Origin: a virus
Length of the DNA: 64,000 nucleotides
Virus record (IMG/VR): IMGVR_UViG_3300031652_000001
Strand: one strand, 5' to 3'
Part shown: positions 7,475 through 29,283 of the stretch, in pieces
How the letters are laid out: each line of letters opens with the position of its first letter
Numbering within the stretch: the stretch's first letter is position 1
Notes under the pieces: generated by a model
The model's database searches: none
Told to the model about the DNA's origin: nothing
The model's input: the letters and a program-made list of their open reading frames with translations, nothing else
Made by a program: the position numbers and the translations under genes

Positions 7475-8482
7475 TTAGGATATACACACCGAAAATAGAG
7501 GAACCTTGCTATCCTTGTCAGTGATTACTTGTCCACCAAGCATAGGAACCTTTTCCGTCTTTGGCAAAACCACTGTCCTAAGCCTCATACCGCTTTCCTC
7601 ATCCTCACAAGGGGACAATCTCAAAGGATGTGCCCTGAGTGCCGACAATAGCCCCTCAGTAGCTGTATAGAGCTTTGCCTTACTCTCCAATAAGACGTCA
7701 TGTATCGCCTTGAGAGTTCGTTCTCTTGGCTGCAATGGCTCCCTTGACGAATCCGGAAACATGGGTAGCCTATCCTTGTTCTGCTGATAGCAGGCCCTTG
7801 CCAACGACCCGTAACAGACACGAATCAGTGGGTACCAGATAGACCGCCAATAGGCCCTTGTTGGCGAAAGCTCAACTCCCGCCACTTTACCTTCAAGCAA
7901 GACAACTGCCCCAACCTGATTATCAAGAAGCTCAAACTCCGCAACGAACTCATCCATTTGCTTCTTGAATGTATTCACAAAAACAGCAAGCTGCTGATGA
8001 TTTGAAAGACCGTGTCGAGAATTGAACTCACCCAGCTCACCCCAGATCAGATTGTATCCTTGCTCCTTACGCTTTGCCAAAGCAATGCTTCTGAGTTCTG
8101 CCGGTAAAATCAACATCTCTGTTGCACTCTTGATATATCCACCCTGGCTAGACTGAATACATCTTGCCGTCCTGATTATGGACTCAGAACCACCCTTCAT
8201 AATCTTGCCGCTACCAACAGCGTGATCCTGAGCTGCCTGCTCAACAACCCAACCGGCCCCAGGAGGAACAAAGTTCGTCCGACCAGATCTCTCTCGGATA
8301 TGAACCGTTCCATAATTGGAGGTCCTTACCTCAAAATCATCAGCCGTACCAAAATCGCTCTCATCAAAACGATCATTATCGGAAACCAATGGTATCACCC
8401 CCATATTTCCGACATACTGAGCCTCACCAGAGGAAACCCCGTCCAGGATGTCCCCCATTGTCAATGTCCGTCTCCTATTCAT
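7475..8482 (-). CDS. ARPP-type (ARG/rhodanese-phosphatase-associated, DUF6569-like) protein
   Basis: Motifs AQDHA, ARCIQSSQGG and EFVAEFE...QVGAVV...GVELSP typical of ARPP-1/ARPP-2 proteins; coupled (ATGA overlap) to the upstream vWA gene. Confidence 0.7.
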   Translation of the reverse strand: MNRRRTLTMGDILDGVSSGEAQYVGNMGVIPLVSDNDRFDESDFGTADDFEVRTSNYGTVHIRERSGRTNFVPPGAGWVVEQAAQDHAVGSGKIMKGGSESIIRTARCIQSSQGGYIKSATEMLILPAELRSIALAKRKEQGYNLIWGELGEFNSRHGLSNHQQLAVFVNTFKKQMDEFVAEFELLDNQVGAVVLLEGKVAGVELSPTRAYWRSIWYPLIRVCYGSLARACYQQNKDRLPMFPDSSREPLQPRERTLKAIHDVLLESKAKLYTATEGLLSALRAHPLRLSPCEDEESGMRLRTVVLPKTEKVPMLGGQVITDKDSKVPLFSVCIS

Positions 8483-10116
8483 GACTCACCTCCTAGTAAG
8501 CCTGAAAAGCCCTCACCTCCTGCCGTAAGCGCTATCCGAACCAGATTCTCAATACCCTGTCTCGGGTCACTCTCGATGAGACCTCGAACCATGGTAGTGC
8601 CGATCAATTCAGGAGACTTGACCGGCATTGTTACAACCTTGTCGATACCATCACAGATCGAACGTACAGCTCCAGTCTCAGCCGCAAAAACAGGATTGAA
8701 ATGAATAATTGGTGTGTCATTCCCATATTCCCTCGCAAGCCTGAGAACATCACCTGTCCGTCCAGCTGGAGCATTCTCATATCCATCACTGATAATGAAA
8801 ATTGCTTCAGGCTCATCCATCATCAAAAAGAGAAGTCGCTCAGCAAGATCAGTAGAACCCTTCGGTCTCGTCAATGTTGCTTTGTCTCCCTCATATGTCC
8901 CACCACACACCAACACAGATGCGGACTCGGCAGATGCAACCAAAGCATCTCTTAACGATAACGCAACAGCCATCGGCCTGAGAGGTTGCTCCCGGCTTCC
9001 TTCCATAGACTTCGAAGCGTCCAATAGGATGCCAATCCTATTATATGAAAAAGGCAACGTCGTTGCCGTTTTCTTCGCTTTCCTTGTAAGGGCGTCCTGG
9101 ACAATACCGGTCATGCCGTTCTCAAAAGCATGAATGTACAGCTCTACCGAACTGTAATCATCAACCCTCATTTCGACATCAACACCCGCTTCCTTTGCCC
9201 TCTTCTGAACAACTCTCCTTTCATGAGTTGTCATCGTTTTCGACTTCGCCTTTATCCTGATAATATCACCAGGCTTCGTATTTTGATGATATGTGCTTCT
9301 GATGCCCTCCAACACTTCAGTCGGAAGAATCGATCCCGCCTTGAGATCTTTCTTAGAACAAACAAAAGCATTCAACATTTTCATCTCTTTATAAAAACCA
9401 TCACGTTTTCCAAAAAGAAAAGCCAAACACTGACAAACTCGAACTCTTTTGTTGTGAACATCTGTGTCGCCGATAATATATCGGAAAACGTGATCCCGCA
9501 GAGCACCTCTATCTATCCTGCTCATCTTGCTGAACTTCGGATATTGCTTTACAGCCTCACCAATAAAAGAAGCCAATTTCTGGCCCCACGCATGAACCAG
9601 TGCTCCCTTCACCTTGTCACGATACTTCACAACCCAAAGCTCAAACCTCGGACTATTCAATATCGTCTTGAGTATCAACTTCCTGGTACGAGCATTGTTT
9701 GAACGCTTGATACCAAAATGACCCCCACGACCCCGAAGCGCGTCGAACATCTTTAAAAGCCGCTGAGGTGGCATTTCCCGAACGAATTTCTCCAAAATAT
9801 GACGTTCTATTTTGGGATCCAAAAACACATCGGCGCCCCGTGGGTTTGCCAATAATGTCGATATACCCAGTTGTCGAGAATGGTCTGTTGTACCCGGCAA
9901 AAGAAGCAACGTCTCATACAGATCTCGACACCTCCGAAATAACTCTGCATGAGCATGGATTTCCGAACTTACCTGCTGTTCCCTCGTATTGTAATGCGTA
10001 GAACGACCGTACGATGTAGTACAGACATCCAAGAACGACAAGACATGAGGAGCCAGATCTTCCGGCCTCAGGTGCTCAACCCGAAAAATGTCCTCCAATA
10101 GTGCAAGGTTCCCCAT
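8479..10116 (-). CDS. TROVE/Ro60-like protein with C-terminal vWA domain
   Basis: C-terminal vWA MIDAS motifs (LLDASKSM, GSTDL, IISDGYEN) after a ~350-aa basic helical region, the same layout as Ro60. Confidence 0.7.
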   Translation of the reverse strand: MGNLALLEDIFRVEHLRPEDLAPHVLSFLDVCTTSYGRSTHYNTREQQVSSEIHAHAELFRRCRDLYETLLLLPGTTDHSRQLGISTLLANPRGADVFLDPKIERHILEKFVREMPPQRLLKMFDALRGRGGHFGIKRSNNARTRKLILKTILNSPRFELWVVKYRDKVKGALVHAWGQKLASFIGEAVKQYPKFSKMSRIDRGALRDHVFRYIIGDTDVHNKRVRVCQCLAFLFGKRDGFYKEMKMLNAFVCSKKDLKAGSILPTEVLEGIRSTYHQNTKPGDIIRIKAKSKTMTTHERRVVQKRAKEAGVDVEMRVDDYSSVELYIHAFENGMTGIVQDALTRKAKKTATTLPFSYNRIGILLDASKSMEGSREQPLRPMAVALSLRDALVASAESASVLVCGGTYEGDKATLTRPKGSTDLAERLLFLMMDEPEAIFIISDGYENAPAGRTGDVLRLAREYGNDTPIIHFNPVFAAETGAVRSICDGIDKVVTMPVKSPELIGTTMVRGLIESDPRQGIENLVRIALTAGGEGFSGLLGGES

Positions 10117-10158
10117 CGCACACCTCCTGATTTTTAATAAAGTCCCCGGACAAAAAAA

Positions 10159-10224
10159 GACTGAGAAAATTCGTCAAATGTCTTTAGTAGTCCTCCACTG
10201 TAACATCTGATTCAGTCCTCAATC
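10159..10224 (-). ncRNA. Y-RNA-like structured RNA, unit A (no tRNA module)
   Basis: Terminal stem GAUUGAG/CUCAGUC, conserved GACU, second stem UCAGAUGU/ACAUUUGA; homologous to units B and C. Confidence 0.65.
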
Positions 10225-10240
10225 TGTGTATTATATAAAA

Positions 10241-10366
10241 GACCGAGATTTTTTAACAAACGGAGTTGGATAGAAATACGGGAATTGAACCCGTTACCGT
10301 TGGTTTAGAAGACCAATGCTCTAACCAGATGAGCTGATTTCTGAACCGTCTATTGAGTCCTCGGTC
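10241..10366 (-). ncRNA. Y-RNA-like (YrlA-like) RNA, unit B, with embedded tRNA-Arg(UCU)-like module
   Basis: Terminal stem GACCGAG/CUCGGUC enclosing a D arm, an anticodon arm (UUGGU-CUUCUAA-ACCAA) and a T arm (ACGGG-UUCAAUU-CCCGU); no free acceptor end. Confidence 0.75.
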
Positions 10367-10383
10367 ATTTTTTCAAAGAAAAT

Positions 10384-10510
10384 AGGCGAGATTATTTAAG
10401 AAACAGTGTGTGTAAAGAAAAACCGGATTCGAACCAGTAACTCTCAGCTCCCAATGCTGAAGCTCTACCAATGAGCTTTTTTCCCTGAACTGTCTCAACA
10501 GTCCTCGCCT
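10384..10510 (-). ncRNA. Y-RNA-like (YrlA-like) RNA, unit C, with embedded tRNA-Pro(UGG)-like module
   Basis: Terminal stem AGGCGAG/CUCGCCU enclosing a D arm, an anticodon arm (UCAGC-AUUGGGA-GCUGA) and a T arm (ACUGG-UUCGAAU-CCGGU). Confidence 0.75.
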
Positions 10511-10520
10511 TGCAAGAATT

Positions 10521-10550
10521 AATCTAACCCAATTTTCTGGAAGGTGTCAA
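10521..10550 (-). promoter_or_regulatory. Sigma70-type promoter for the Y-RNA-like/vWA/ARPP operon
   Basis: TTGACA-18 nt-TAGATT ending 10 nt upstream of RNA unit C. Confidence 0.7.
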
Positions 10551-10570
10551 CAGTAAAAACGAAATTGAAT

Positions 10571-10933
10571 TCACTTTATCCTGTTTACTGAGATATACGC
10601 CTGAAATGCATTAACAATTTCTTTTCTCGATACTTTGGCCCCCCATGTTTCGAGTTTCATTTTCAGATCAGACAATGACTTTGGGATCTCCATATGATTC
10701 GCAAGAACAGCCTTCATAAACGCCTCTACTCCTGTCTGTATGTTCTGCCTTGTCTTGGTATCCAGTGTTCCTCCAAGCCCTCTGAAGGCCCTTATGAAAC
10801 TCCTTGCCTGGTCCATGGTGACATCCTTCATCTTTGGCCTCGTTGTGCCCTCTGAAAGGTACGAGCGACGCCTCAATGTAGAGACACCAACACCATAATT
10901 CCTGTTTATTATTTTTGTACGAGACGTCCGCAT
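10571..10933 (-). CDS. Hypothetical protein (LRxRxYLxE motif)
   Basis: ORF containing TLRRRSYLSEG; start uncertain. Confidence 0.55.
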   Translation of the reverse strand: MRTSRTKIINRNYGVGVSTLRRRSYLSEGTTRPKMKDVTMDQARSFIRAFRGLGGTLDTKTRQNIQTGVEAFMKAVLANHMEIPKSLSDLKMKLETWGAKVSRKEIVNAFQAYISVNRIK

Positions 10934-10999: not shown

Positions 11000-12409
11000 T
11001 CAAGACCAGCCACCTTCACGATAACAACAAAAGCTTGTTCCATAAGCATCACAATAACTGTCAAGATCCGAATAGTGTTCACCACCAGCGGAATAACAAT
11101 CATTGGCATAAAGACATGCCATCGAAAATTTCAAAGTACACGCATCAGGAACAATTTCCTCTGTTTCACTGTCACTGGTATCCGTTTCAGTCTCTTCTTC
11201 CGTATCCTCAATCGTTTCAGAATCAATATCCGTATCGTATTCAGTATCTTGCTCTGTTTCAGTATCCACCTCCGTATCAACAGGCAATTTCATAACAGCA
11301 CAACATAACCTTCCTTCTAATTCACCCCTACATACCCCCTCGGCTGTAACAAATCCCCACTCTGGATCTGGATAAGGAACATCCTCACATTTTTCCTTAT
11401 CCAAAGACAAACTTGGATGCATACAGAAATTACAATTCGGCTCTGTATCGCTATCAGTATCAAAGTCCGTGTCGGTGTCGGTGTCGGTGTCCGTATCAGT
11501 GTCCGTGTCAGTATCGGTATCGGTATCGGTGTCGGTGTCGGTGTCCGTGTCCGTATCTGTGTCCGTGTCAGTATCGGTATCGGTATCGGTGTCGGTGTCG
11601 GTGTCCGTGTCCGTATCTGTGTCCGTGTCCGTGTCCGTGTCGGTATCGGTATCGATATCAACATCCATACTACCTGAATCCTCACCAGCATCCAGATCTA
11701 TTCCGGTATCCCCATCTGTACCAACATCTTCTTCCGAGCCTGTGTCTGTATCAACGCTGTCATTGGTATCGGTATCAGTATCGGTATCGGTATCAGTATC
11801 AGTATCGGTATCGGTATCGGTATCGGTATCGGTGTCGGTGTCGGTGTCCGAGTCCGAGTCCGTATCTGTGTCCGTGTCCGTGTCCGTGTCGCTGTCAGCA
11901 TTACCGTCTGCATCAGTGTCTGTGTCCATATCACTATCCGCATCAGAATCACCATCCCCATCCCCATCGGCATCCCCATCGGCATCGGCATCGGCATCGG
12001 CATCGGCATCGGCATCCATATTCATATCCGTGTCAGTGTCCGCATCGGCATCAGTGTCCGCATCGGCATCAGTGTCCGCATCGGCATCCGCATCGGCATC
12101 GGCATCGGCATCGGCATCGGCATAGGTATCCGCACCACCATCAATACCGGCATCAAAATCACTGTCCGTATCGATATCTGTATCAAACTCAAAATCAAAA
12201 GAATCTGTCTCAGATTCAGAGCCTTCTACCCGGATATCCGTTCCAGTATCTATCGAATCTATATCGCAAATCATCCTATTTATAGCACTTGAAGAATCAT
12301 CTTCCTCGGTACCAAAAAAAGATGCATCACCGGCATCCAGCTCATCCCCATTGTCCTCTAAACAGGCCACCAAAAAAATAGCAACCAAAACAAAAAATGT
12401 CGTCCTCAT
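11000..12409 (-). CDS. Asp-rich (DT/DA repeat) lipoprotein with Cys-rich C-terminal modules
   Basis: Signal peptide with lipobox LVAC, long (DT)n/(DA)n tracts, small Cys-rich modules. Confidence 0.85.
11462..12122. repeat. Coding hexamer repeats (Asp-Thr/Asp-Ala) with a higher-order 60-nt duplication
   Basis: gtgtcg/gtatcg/gcatcg units; 11521-11569 recurs at 11581-11629. Confidence 0.9.
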
Positions 12410-13097: not shown

Positions 13098-13104
13098 CTT
13101 TTAG

Positions 13105-13190
13105 TACCCGTGCTCGGATTCGAACCGAGACCGCCCTTTCGGGTGCCATAGGTTTTGAGCCTACCGCCTGTACCATTCGGCTACACGGGC
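13105..13190 (-). tRNA. tRNA-Leu(CAA)
   Basis: Cloverleaf with long variable arm, loop CUCAAAA. Confidence 0.92.
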
Positions 13191-13194
13191 ATTG

Positions 13195-13270
13195 TACGCG
13201 AGGGGGGACTCGAACCCCCAACCTCCAGATCCTTAGTCTGACGCCTCGTTCCAAATTGGGCTACTCGCGC
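13195..13270 (-). tRNA. tRNA-Leu(AAG), short variable loop
   Basis: UCAGA-CUAAGGA-UCUGG; 5-nt variable region. Confidence 0.85.
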
Positions 13271-13276
13271 ATGTTG

Positions 13277-13351
13277 TACACCGGAAGGGAGTCGAACCCT
13301 CACTGTCAGGATCCTGAGTCCTGTGCCTCTTCCAGATTGGGCTACCGGCGC
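13277..13351 (-). tRNA. tRNA-Leu(CAG), short variable loop
   Basis: CAGGA-CUCAGGA-UCCUG; 5-nt variable region. Confidence 0.87.
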
Positions 13352-14217: not shown

Positions 14218-14274
14218 TGCCTCCTTGGTTCAATCTTACCCACAAAGTAGACACCGTCAACAAATCGTTTATTG

Positions 14275-14349
14275 TGCGACCACTGGGATTCGAACCCAGA
14301 ACTCTGTGATCTTAAATCACATGCCTCTACCAAATTGGGCCACAGTCGC
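14275..14349 (-). tRNA. tRNA-Leu(UAA), short variable loop
   Basis: UGUGA-UUUAAGA-UCACA; 5-nt variable region. Confidence 0.87.
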
Positions 14350-14369: not shown

Positions 14370-14445
14370 CAGGGGCATATGGAGTCGAACCCCCAACAAC
14401 AGATACTACTGGAAGCCTGCGCTCTACCATTTAAGCTATACCCCT
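14370..14445 (-). pseudogene. Aberrant tRNA-Trp-like gene
   Basis: Trp-type acceptor AGGGG.../G73, but a 12-nt anticodon loop containing CCA and a mispaired T stem. Confidence 0.6.
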
Positions 14446-18280: not shown

Positions 18281-18367
18281 AGGAGGTACCCGTATTTAAA
18301 CCAAGACCGCTTTTTACCGCGCTCTATCCATTCCACAGACAGATCTTACCATTGAGGTTATCCCTCC
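18281..18367 (-). pseudogene. Degenerate tRNA-Ser(GGA) copy
   Basis: Aligns with 18499-18585, but the T loop (UUUAAAU) and stems are decayed. Confidence 0.65.
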
Positions 18368-18498: not shown

Positions 18499-18585
18499 CG
18501 GGAGCGCCTGGATTCGAACCAGAACCACGTTTTACCGTGCTCTATCCTTTCCACGGATGGGCCTTACCATTGAGGCTACACTCCC
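18499..18585 (-). tRNA. tRNA-Ser(GGA)
   Basis: CAUCC-GUGGAAA-GGAUA, long variable arm, G73. Confidence 0.85.
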
Positions 18586-25811: not shown

Positions 25812-25829
25812 TGGAAATCACCATCCTTG

Positions 25830-25903
25830 TTGCGGGGGCCGGATTTGAACCGACGACCTTTTGGTTATGAACCAAATAAGCTACCAGACTGCTCTACCCC
25901 GCA
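25830..25903 (-). tRNA. tRNA-Met(CAU), initiator-like body
   Basis: UGCGGGG...AGAGCAGUCUGGUAGCU...CAU; fMet-like but U1-A72 paired. Confidence 0.87.
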
Positions 25904-28563: not shown

Positions 28564-28731
28564 TGGGCCAAGCAGGATTCGAACCTGCACAGATGCTCTG
28601 ATGTTGGTATTCCCTGGTACGCGACTGTCCACCGATAGAATACCCATTTTCCAGTCAGCTTCAACACGCATCGATTCAGCATCTTATCCAACACGTCACC
28701 AGTTAGCGTCTACCTTTTCCGCCATTGGCCC
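28564..28731 (-). ncRNA. tRNA-Leu-like RNA with ~90 extra nucleotides in the anticodon/variable region
   Basis: Perfect acceptor GGGCCAA/UUGGCCC-A, Leu-type D arm GGCGGAAAAGGUAGACGC and perfect T arm GCAGG-UUCGAAU-CCUGC; 168 nt long. Confidence 0.7.
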
Positions 28732-28897
28732 ATTCTATCGAAGATCTTCCAGTGGATCGTCGTATTCTCCAAGCACCCAACCGAGAGCACTGGCGACACC
28801 ATCCAGAAAGGCATCATCCTCGTTCTCTTCTCTCATCTTCAATGCCTCTTCGTAAATCCTCTGAATATCTGGTCTGTCCATTTACCACCTCATTTTG

Positions 28898-29283
28898 AGG
28901 ACACGCCGGGAATCGAACCCGGGTCCGAATATCGTCATCGGCATGAATCTTCCACATGCTTGGTCTGTCAATATACCCTCATCTCAATGGCAACAGACAA
29001 CCATCGAAATATTCGTTTCTGGAATATCGCTTTCGCTCGCCACTACTTACGACGTCACTGCATGCATCCCAGAAAATACAGCAGCTATCCTGTTGAAAAT
29101 GACGCCCTTATGCCTACACAGGCACTCGACAATCGGACGGCTCAAGCAGCTATTTCAAACTGTTGAACAGGTGTGTTGTCTCTTTTGGCAACTGTTTTTG
29201 AGCATTCTTTTTAACCCGCTGAATACACAAAGCGGGACATGCTCCACACGGAATCATGATACCCGTCGAATCCAATCGTGCCC
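28898..29283 (-). ncRNA. ssrA: tmRNA; tag peptide AKRDNTPVQQFEIAA* (29189-29142)
   Basis: 5' GGGCACGAUUGGAUUCGAC, G3-U70 acceptor stem, 3' T arm CCGGG-UUCGAUU-CCCGG, tag ending in AA-stop. Confidence 0.93.

Follow-up and report, generated by a model that had tools for sequence, protein, structure and literature searches.

Ro60/Y-RNA particles are conserved from bacteria to humans and, to our knowledge, the role of the tRNA-like end of the bacterial Y RNAs is not yet known. The bacterial Y RNAs YrlA and YrlB have been described with Rsr (Ro60) in Salmonella, M. smegmatis and mycobacteriophages (RF02553; PMC4201824; Wang et al. 2018, bioRxiv 10.1101/312249). Chen et al. (2014) reported that YrlA lies on the same strand as rsr and within 4 kb of it in more than 250 bacteria and 22 phages (PMC4201824). 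YrlA has a 5' GNCGAAN0-1G motif, which is the presumed Rsr site, and nearly invariant D and T stems; its tRNA-like domain is arranged in the order T arm, closed acceptor-like hairpin and D arm, and YrlB is a second RNA without such a domain (PMC4201824). In addition, the Ro60 of Thermus phage phiLo binds two upstream stem-bulge-stem Y-like RNAs, Yrl1 and Yrl2 (PMC12135203; PDB 9KOP, 9L5Y).

In the present study, we analysed three tandem units, C, B and A, which lie on the minus strand of the window (the whole 64-kb stretch of viral DNA that was analysed) upstream of a gene for a 545-aa protein (Table 1). We consider, with a probability of roughly three in four, that these units are non-coding RNAs in tandem which belong to the Y-RNA kind, have YrlA/YrlB as their closest counterparts and are the partners of a diverged Ro60-type ring protein encoded by the downstream gene. 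A literature search found no description of a Ro60-like/ARPP operon with complete or permuted tRNAs mounted on an RNA handle, and the locus is apparently a diverged, unpublished branch of the Ro60/Y-RNA (YrlA/YrlB) system with a complete, non-permuted tRNA module. An earlier sequence-only reading of the same DNA had noticed the RNA units and missed the key context, the Ro60-like gene downstream.

Table 1. Positions of the RNA units, promoter-like sites and protein genes of the locus in the window
Feature	Position	Strand	Details
Unit C, 127 nt	10384..10510	minus	cargo: complete tRNA shape, anticodon UGG, 10485-10414
Unit C outer stem	10510-10503 with 10391-10384	minus	AGGCGAGG/UCUCGCCU
Unit C inner stem	10496-10489 with 10407-10400	minus	GAGACAGU/ACUGUUUC
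Unit C motifs	GAGGACU 10506-10500; UCAG handle 10488-10485	minus	
Unit B, 126 nt	10241..10366	minus	cargo: complete tRNA shape, anticodon UCU, 10343-10267
Unit B outer stem	10366-10359 with 10248-10241	minus	GACCGAGG/UCUCGGUC
Unit B inner stem	10354-10346 with 10263-10255	minus	AAUAGACGG/CCGUUUGUU
Unit B motifs	GAGGACU 10362-10356; UUCAG handle	minus	
Unit A, 68 nt, 'empty', YrlB-like	10158..10225	minus	19-nt hairpin instead of tRNA; then U7 at 10157-10151
Unit A outer stem	10225-10217 with 10166-10158	minus	
Unit A inner stem	10210-10202 with 10182-10174	minus	
Unit A motifs	GAGGACU 10220-10214; ACAG handle	minus	
Sigma-70-like promoter, TTGACA-18-TAGATT, 5' of unit C	10521..10550	minus	consensus scan, 10/12 matches; consensus match only
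Second promoter-like site, TTGTTA-18-TATAAT, overlapping the unit B 3' end	10230..10259	minus	10/12 matches; consensus match only
Ro60/Rsr-like protein, 545 aa; predicted helical-repeat ring and vWA domain with MIDAS D366, S368, S370	8479..10116	minus	AF2 model, Foldseek, VIA-align
ARPP-1-family protein, 335 aa	7475..8482	minus	Pfam PF20208, E 5e-22

ARAGORN called 17 tRNA genes and a tmRNA in the 64-kb window, every one on the minus strand, among them tRNA-Arg(UCU) at 10343..10267 and tRNA-Pro(UGG) at 10486..10412. The Rfam tRNA model (RF00005, gathering threshold 29) scored these two units at 57.1 and 54.7 bits, respectively. We found that units C, B and A share a common plan, which from 5' to 3' begins with the 5' strand of an outer stem, its last bases being GAGG. 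An internal loop that starts with ACU, an inner stem and an unpaired U(U/A)CAG lead to the cargo, after which both stems are closed by their return strands and a U-rich tract follows. GAGGACU is common to the three units; B and C have CGAGGACU at this site, and A has UGAGGACU. The stem sequences vary among the units with the base-pairing maintained. The sequence-only reading had taken B and C for tRNA-shaped modules on a common RNA scaffold and A for the scaffold alone, and this description holds: B and C each have two nested stems around a module that the tRNA model recognises, and A has both stems and the motif with a hairpin in place of the tRNA. Unit A is also kept in the sister loci. Among the 19 tRNA-like genes of the window, the pairing of leader with trailer is clearest in units B and C, whose duplex energies were attained by 0/200 and 2/200 shuffles; the nearest other gene, tRNA-Met at 25829-25903 (3/200 shuffles), is without any handle motif.

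The Ro60-fold gene has the same orientation as the units and starts 42-268 nt after their 3' ends, the 42 nt being the distance from unit A to the start of the 545-aa ORF. A strong SD sequence, AGGAGG, is placed 7 nt 5' of the ATG. At the position equivalent to the sigma-70-like promoter of the window, a syntenic sister-phage locus (L018) has TTGACA-N17-GATAAT, and the second putative promoter, judged by its sequence, could separately drive unit A and the operon. This arrangement between promoter and SD, together with the U-rich tract after each outer stem and the U7 after unit A, might also be that of a structured 5' leader, attenuator or terminator array for the cis control of the Ro60-like operon, in which the tRNA shapes serve as stabilisers only. 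We regard such an array as very improbable: a locus has from one to four units with very different cargo, a terminator needs no conserved single-stranded ACU and UUCAG, and known Ro60 loci have trans-acting Y RNAs in that position (PMC4201824). A terminator scan flagged T arms only and not the long-range stems. Hammerhead, HDV-like and twister ribozymes flanking the tRNAs were also looked for, and there was no Rfam match at E up to 10 and no core motif by eye.

The handle is a conserved, covarying RNA structure. For this analysis, we made a MAFFT alignment of 16 units of standard topology, whose sources were huge phages, Minicystis rosea and four Pirellulaceae, and RNAalifold predicted the two scaffold stems together with the D, anticodon and T arms, with compensatory changes in 23/30 pairs. 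In the 16 scaffold pairs, 94.4% of the cells were paired versus 70.1% in shuffles, none of 500 shuffles attained this value, and double-sided changes were seen in 13 of the 16. Sliding the partner by 1-3 columns brought the scaffold pairing to 44% or less. The MAFFT/RNAalifold covariation was used instead of a test of own versus swapped partners, which is biased because the units were chosen for pairing.

A search of viral contigs using the 545-aa protein alone gave no matches, and a profile from 38 homologues was required to retrieve its viral relatives. With this protein-family profile, the set grew to 23 loci in viruses and a further 43 in the genome collection, the latter being mostly bacterial genomes and MAGs, with two archaeal-labelled records. 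Across the family the consensus of the 5' motif is GRGRACU, and the handle occurs almost exclusively just upstream of the gene family of the 545-aa protein. The handle detector found 58 units within 650 nt upstream, on the same strand, of 56 homologous loci, versus 1 unit in each of three equal-sized control regions. The specificity of the detector comes from the combination of motifs and position, because stems without the handle motifs gave 22 matches in the whole window versus 6-15 in shuffled sequence and are not specific alone. The detector became informative once the CAG of the handle was required and control regions were compared. A leader-motif scan of viral contigs gave 23 matches, of which only L018 has a handle with tRNA-like cargo; the remaining 22 look like chance. 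L018 is syntenic with the window and has, in order, the promoter, four units, the SD and a gene 47% identical to the 545-aa ORF. The first of its units is a tRNA whose anticodon loop is odd; a circularly permuted tRNA-Arg(UCU) and a tRNA-Ala(UGC) come next, and the last unit is empty and has U7 after it.

Inverted repeats around each tRNA and cargo that varies by locus are features that would also be shared by a repeat at the DNA level, or by a mobile cassette of MITE- or attC-like type, that moves tRNA genes. We find this explanation hardly credible, as G-U pairs and compensatory changes maintain the pairing, and do so on only one strand, target duplications are absent, and the position and orientation to one gene are fixed in phages and bacterial chromosomes alike. 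Furthermore, additional copies in the 64-kb window were not above chance level. An integron attC-like site was also considered, and the R''/R' consensus is absent from the stem ends.

The 545-aa protein is not recognised from its sequence. It has no Pfam family at E up to 0.01 (TROVE PF05731 included) and no PHROG match, and a sequence profile of the Ro60-like family against the PDB sequences had no match, Ro60 included. Its AlphaFold (AF2) model was obtained with pLDDT 85 and pTM 0.78. This model resembles every solved Ro60, and no other structure, along its whole length. The top 12 Foldseek matches of this model were all Ro60 (human, Xenopus, Deinococcus Rsr and Thermus phage phiLo) with E 9e-8 to 3e-3, at TM-scores of only 0.43-0.54. 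By VIA-align the best match was 2i91_B (Z 18.3, rmsd 4.5, 412 residues, model residues 23-517), and the Ro60 entries ranged from Z 18.3 down to 11.9, with the phiLo Ro60 9l5y_A at Z 15.3. The non-Ro60 chains above the lowest Ro60 entry were MIDAS/vWA domains only (Z 12.1 or less), which cover the C-terminal third. The MIDAS DxSxS residues are invariant across the 38 homologues. According to the predicted structure, the protein is a remote Ro60/Rsr homologue with a TROVE-type ring and a vWA domain.

The start of the ARPP-like gene overlaps the stop of the Ro60-like gene (ATGA), and this gene is directly downstream of the Ro60-like gene in 55/59 loci. Prediction of a complex of the two proteins gave a score of 0.66 (runs 0.67, 0.66 and 0.64) versus 0.00 for the best control; in the calibration, 0.66 was attained by 58/80 solved complexes and by 2/110 mismatched pairs. 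The contact agreement between the runs was at least 81% and the pLDDT of the partner at least 80. The predicted interface consists of the MIDAS serines and vWA helices (368-370, 420-466) on the Ro60-like side, and of residues 20-25, 181-186 (with the invariant E184) and 246-271 on the ARPP side. C108, Q113 and H87 of ARPP are invariant as well. The ARPP-like protein is thus predicted to dock on the vWA/MIDAS face of the Ro60-like protein. Structural relatives of ARPP were searched by Foldseek, which gave none at E up to 1e-3, and by VIA-align, in which the best of 48,161 chains had Z 4.4. The describers of ARPP propose an enzyme acting on ribose moieties, and Ro60 is not mentioned there (PMC9503650).

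The likeness to YrlA and YrlB extends over several features. In both cases, tandem small RNAs directly precede a gene for a Ro60-fold protein and share its strand, and a handle of stem, internal loop and stem joins the 5' and 3' ends and bears a conserved purine-rich motif on its 5' strand. As in YrlA, the tRNA-like module has conserved D and T arms, and the D-arm consensus UAGCUCAUUUGGUAGAGC is that of the YrlA model. As with YrlB, there is a second RNA (unit A) without a tRNA module. The differences are also considerable. The tRNA module of the window is complete and has a 7-nt anticodon loop, whereas YrlA has no anticodon loop; it is not permuted, and the handle joins it at the acceptor end, whereas that of YrlA joins at the anticodon stem. 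The motifs here are GRGRACU and U(U/A)CAG, and GNCGAAN0-1G is absent. Furthermore, unlike in the YrlA systems, the protein is missed by Pfam TROVE, the operon partner is ARPP versus RtcB/RtcA, and the anticodon is hypervariable. When the window units (10000-10700) were compared with Rfam at E up to 10, only the tRNA model matched and YrlA did not. Judged as a member of YrlA (RF02553), the locus has a Ro60 homologue within about 4 kb on the same strand and tRNA-like D and T arms; it does not have the 69-bit gathering score, GNCGAAN0-1G or the permuted order without an anticodon loop.

The locus resembles that of Thermus phage phiLo in having a phage-encoded Ro60 and two Y-like RNAs upstream with a stem-bulge-stem layout. 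In contrast, the Yrls of phiLo have a CGAA bulge and lack a complete tRNA, an ARPP partner has not been described for phiLo and its protein is detectable by sequence. There is also a parallel with the Rsr-Yrn1-PNPase particle of Deinococcus radiodurans (RYPER), for which the working model is that a Y RNA, via its tRNA-like end, links an effector to the Ro60 ring; here, the coupled protein is ARPP and is predicted on the vWA domain, not on the RNA. Like tmRNA and viral tRNA-like structures (TYMV TLS), the units are larger RNAs that mimic tRNA. Those RNAs have a free CCA and are aminoacylated, whereas the tRNA ends run into a paired handle in the present case.

We found that the cargo is diverse among the relatives. 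In a census of 72 distinct units from 39 loci, 24 had standard tRNA shapes, 11 were circularly permuted and 37 were empty or of another kind. The handle is attached at the acceptor end in the window, and at the 26/27 junction or the variable region in the permuted relatives. In these, the acceptor end is shut by a loop, as in YrlA, and the anticodon arm is retained. The tRNA 3' half is encoded ahead of the 5' half in L034, L035, L036, L048, L049 and L052. The permuted unit of L034 gave 37.2 bits with the Rfam YrlA model (gathering 69; E 1.5e-6 locally and 1.6e-4 in 66 kb), and that of L035 gave a sub-threshold 31 bits. The leader of the L034 permuted unit is nearly identical to that of unit B of the window. 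In the sister phage, the unit L018:1624-1770 (minus), which is the same as L034:3586-3743, takes the place of unit B and is a circularly permuted tRNA-Arg(UCU), with the order anticodon arm, T arm, acceptor 3' strand, A-CCA, 5-nt loop, acceptor 5' strand and D arm; ARAGORN made no call on it. Circularly permuted tRNA genes are also known from Cyanidioschyzon merolae and from some green algae and archaea, and these genes yield functional tRNAs via bulge-helix-bulge cleavage and circularisation. Unlike these, the present loci have no evident bulge-helix-bulge motif or endonuclease, and the units of the window are not themselves permuted.

In L048 (Minicystis rosea CP016211), L035, L049 and L052, the operon and the Y-like RNAs are embedded amid dozens of tRNA genes, and such arrays around the operon are found in both bacterial chromosomes and huge phages. 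L048 also has tmRNA-model matches below threshold.

The absence of a free CCA end had been claimed in the sequence-only reading. In one respect this is right, since the chain runs on into the trailer; in another it is not, since unit B, which has a C1/A72 mismatch, encodes U-CCA directly after the acceptor stem. CCA is encoded in none of the other tRNA genes of the window, and its absence in unit C is uninformative because no free tRNA gene of the phage encodes CCA. Unit B and L027 encode N-CCA, and several permuted relatives have ACCA ahead of the closing loop. RNase P and 3' trimming could free usable tRNAs from units B and C. The RNAs would then be in dual use, as Y-like precursors bound by the ring from which RNase P and 3' processing free or open a chargeable tRNA, the handle being a cage that controls the release. 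The encoded CCA ends agree with this, and so does M. smegmatis YrlA, which is cut by RNase P and gets CCA while bound to Rsr (PMC4201824). We nevertheless hold dual use to be unlikely, given that the identity elements are missing and the anticodon switches without a change of the body, and that Planctomycete orthologues have only an interrupted acceptor-like helix (5/7), partly derived from the handle.

The anticodon turnover was seen directly in two sister phages, L090 and L091, whose Ro60-like proteins are 90% and 88% identical to that of the window. Their scaffolds and tRNA bodies are almost identical to those of the window, but the anticodon loops differ. In unit C, the loops of the window, L090 and L091 are AUUGGGA, AUUGAGA and UUUUGGA, with the anticodons UGG, UGA and UUG, respectively. 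In unit B, they are CUUCUAA, CUUUCUAA (8 nt) and AUUGCUA, with the anticodons UCU, none and UGC; ARAGORN gives a 4-base anticodon for the copy with the 8-nt loop (L090:2273-2349). Variable columns accounted for 7/15 in the anticodon loops versus 52/404 elsewhere (Fisher p = 0.002). Among the Planctomycete orthologues, CUU, UUU and UAG are found on one body, and a fourth has AUU with a different anticodon stem. Such fast anticodon change between near-identical sister loci fits an anticodon-specific role. The swappable, grafted cassettes of the sequence-only reading overstate the capture of foreign tRNAs: the modules have a common conserved D arm, and as this is also the YrlA consensus, they look like diverging descendants of one Y-RNA tRNA module.

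Pro and Arg identity rules are established tRNA knowledge. The scaffold Pro unit has G1-U72, U73 and A8, versus C1-G72, A73 and U8 in the free tRNA-Pro(UGG) of the phage (27785-27859); the scaffold Arg unit has U20, C8 and C1/A72, versus A20 and U8 in the free tRNA-Arg(CCU). The Pro and Arg identity elements are missing at U73/U72 of the Pro unit and at U20 of the Arg unit. In addition, Ser, Leu and Tyr anticodons are found on class-I bodies across the family. A body with a short variable arm and UGA cannot be a bacterial tRNA-Ser, and SerRS should not accept it. For a translation tRNA, the anticodon would be stable among orthologues and matched by the identity elements; here, it changes between orthologues and the elements do not match.

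The view that these are ordinary phage tRNA-Pro and tRNA-Arg genes, with the leader-trailer pairing as a processing or stabilising stem and the Ro60-like neighbour unrelated, draws on the quality of the modules. With 57 and 55 bits, units B and C are good cloverleaves with 7-nt canonical anticodon loops, U33, a purine at 37 and acceptor helices of 6-7 bp. CCA is encoded in unit B, no other tRNA-Arg(UCU) was seen in the window, and the locus adjoins a genuine 15-gene tRNA array, so that the tRNA association could partly reflect location. This view is quite unlikely in our judgement. The same handle bears permuted, acceptor-less and empty cargo, and it is linked to the Ro60-like gene across phyla; the anticodon identity switches on an unchanged body in the sister phages, including UGA on a short-arm body; the identity elements are missing; and a canonical tRNA-Pro(UGG) is already present in the phage. 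From these sequence comparisons, the most likely role of units B and C is that of structural tRNA modules within Y-like RNAs, and not that of translation tRNAs. Two observations, the missing identity elements and the Ser, Leu and Tyr anticodons on short-arm bodies, suggest that they may not be chargeable, as the sequence-only reading had inferred.

The surrounding tRNA genes have some features of their own. At 28564-28731 (minus), adjoining the tmRNA at 28897-29283, there is a tRNA-model match of 32.5 bits over 168 nt, which looks like a tRNA-like RNA with an insert of about 95 nt. Three tRNA-Leu (AAG, CAG and UAA) at 13194-13351 and 14274-14349 (minus) are 76-77 nt in length and have no long variable arm, and Leu(CAA) at 13104-13190 is 87 nt. 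A weak tRNA-model match (31.4 bits) with no ARAGORN call is located at 14370-14445 (minus) between tRNA-Ser and tRNA-Leu. A 72-nt direct repeat, 78% identical, occurs at 18289-18360 and 18507-18578; the second copy is inside tRNA-Ser(GGA), and the first is perhaps a decayed copy of a tRNA or a variant of one. Apart from the tRNAs, a 469-aa ORF at 11000-12409 (minus) is made of DNA with 12/18-nt periodic repeats, including 35 copies in one repeat family, and its product has a long acidic Asp/Thr-rich tract.

On the Y-RNA reading, transcription would begin from the promoter at 10550-10521 and probably give one precursor that is able to read into the Ro60-like/ARPP-like operon. Each RNA would present a handle, in which an outer stem with GAG at its end is followed by an internal loop that contains the conserved (G)ACU, by an inner stem and by the unpaired U(U/A)CAG. 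We infer that the ring protein binds the RNA and that the handle is its likely docking site. The far end of the handle would display the cargo, which is just a hairpin in unit A and, in units C and B, a full L-shaped tRNA body whose anticodon loop has the canonical 7 nt. The putative ARPP-like enzyme would sit on the ring protein, at the MIDAS face of the vWA domain. In such a particle, a factor that recognises tRNA may be tethered or baited by the tRNA module, and the anticodon would be the variable element that sets the specificity. In its most specific form, this would be a programmable tRNA-bait particle, in which a Ro60-like ring with MIDAS-docked ARPP carries handle-mounted tRNAs whose anticodon stem-loop acts as a decoy or sensor. 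We offer this form tentatively and think it possible rather than probable. Its targets might be factors directed at the anticodon, such as the anticodon nucleases or tRNA-modifying toxins that take part in conflicts between phage and host. If it were true, an anticodon arms race would account for the anticodon flips between sister phages with the rest of the RNA fixed.

This branch is widespread, with at least 287 proteins in huge phages, Myxococcota, Planctomycetota and Actinomycetota; its proteins are missed by Pfam and its RNAs by Rfam. For annotation, it is probable that some of the 'tRNA genes' counted in the tRNA arrays of phages and bacteria are not tRNAs for translation. A whole tRNA with a fast-evolving anticodon, together with an obligate enzyme-like partner, leads to the idea that the tRNA module may be the specificity element of the particle.
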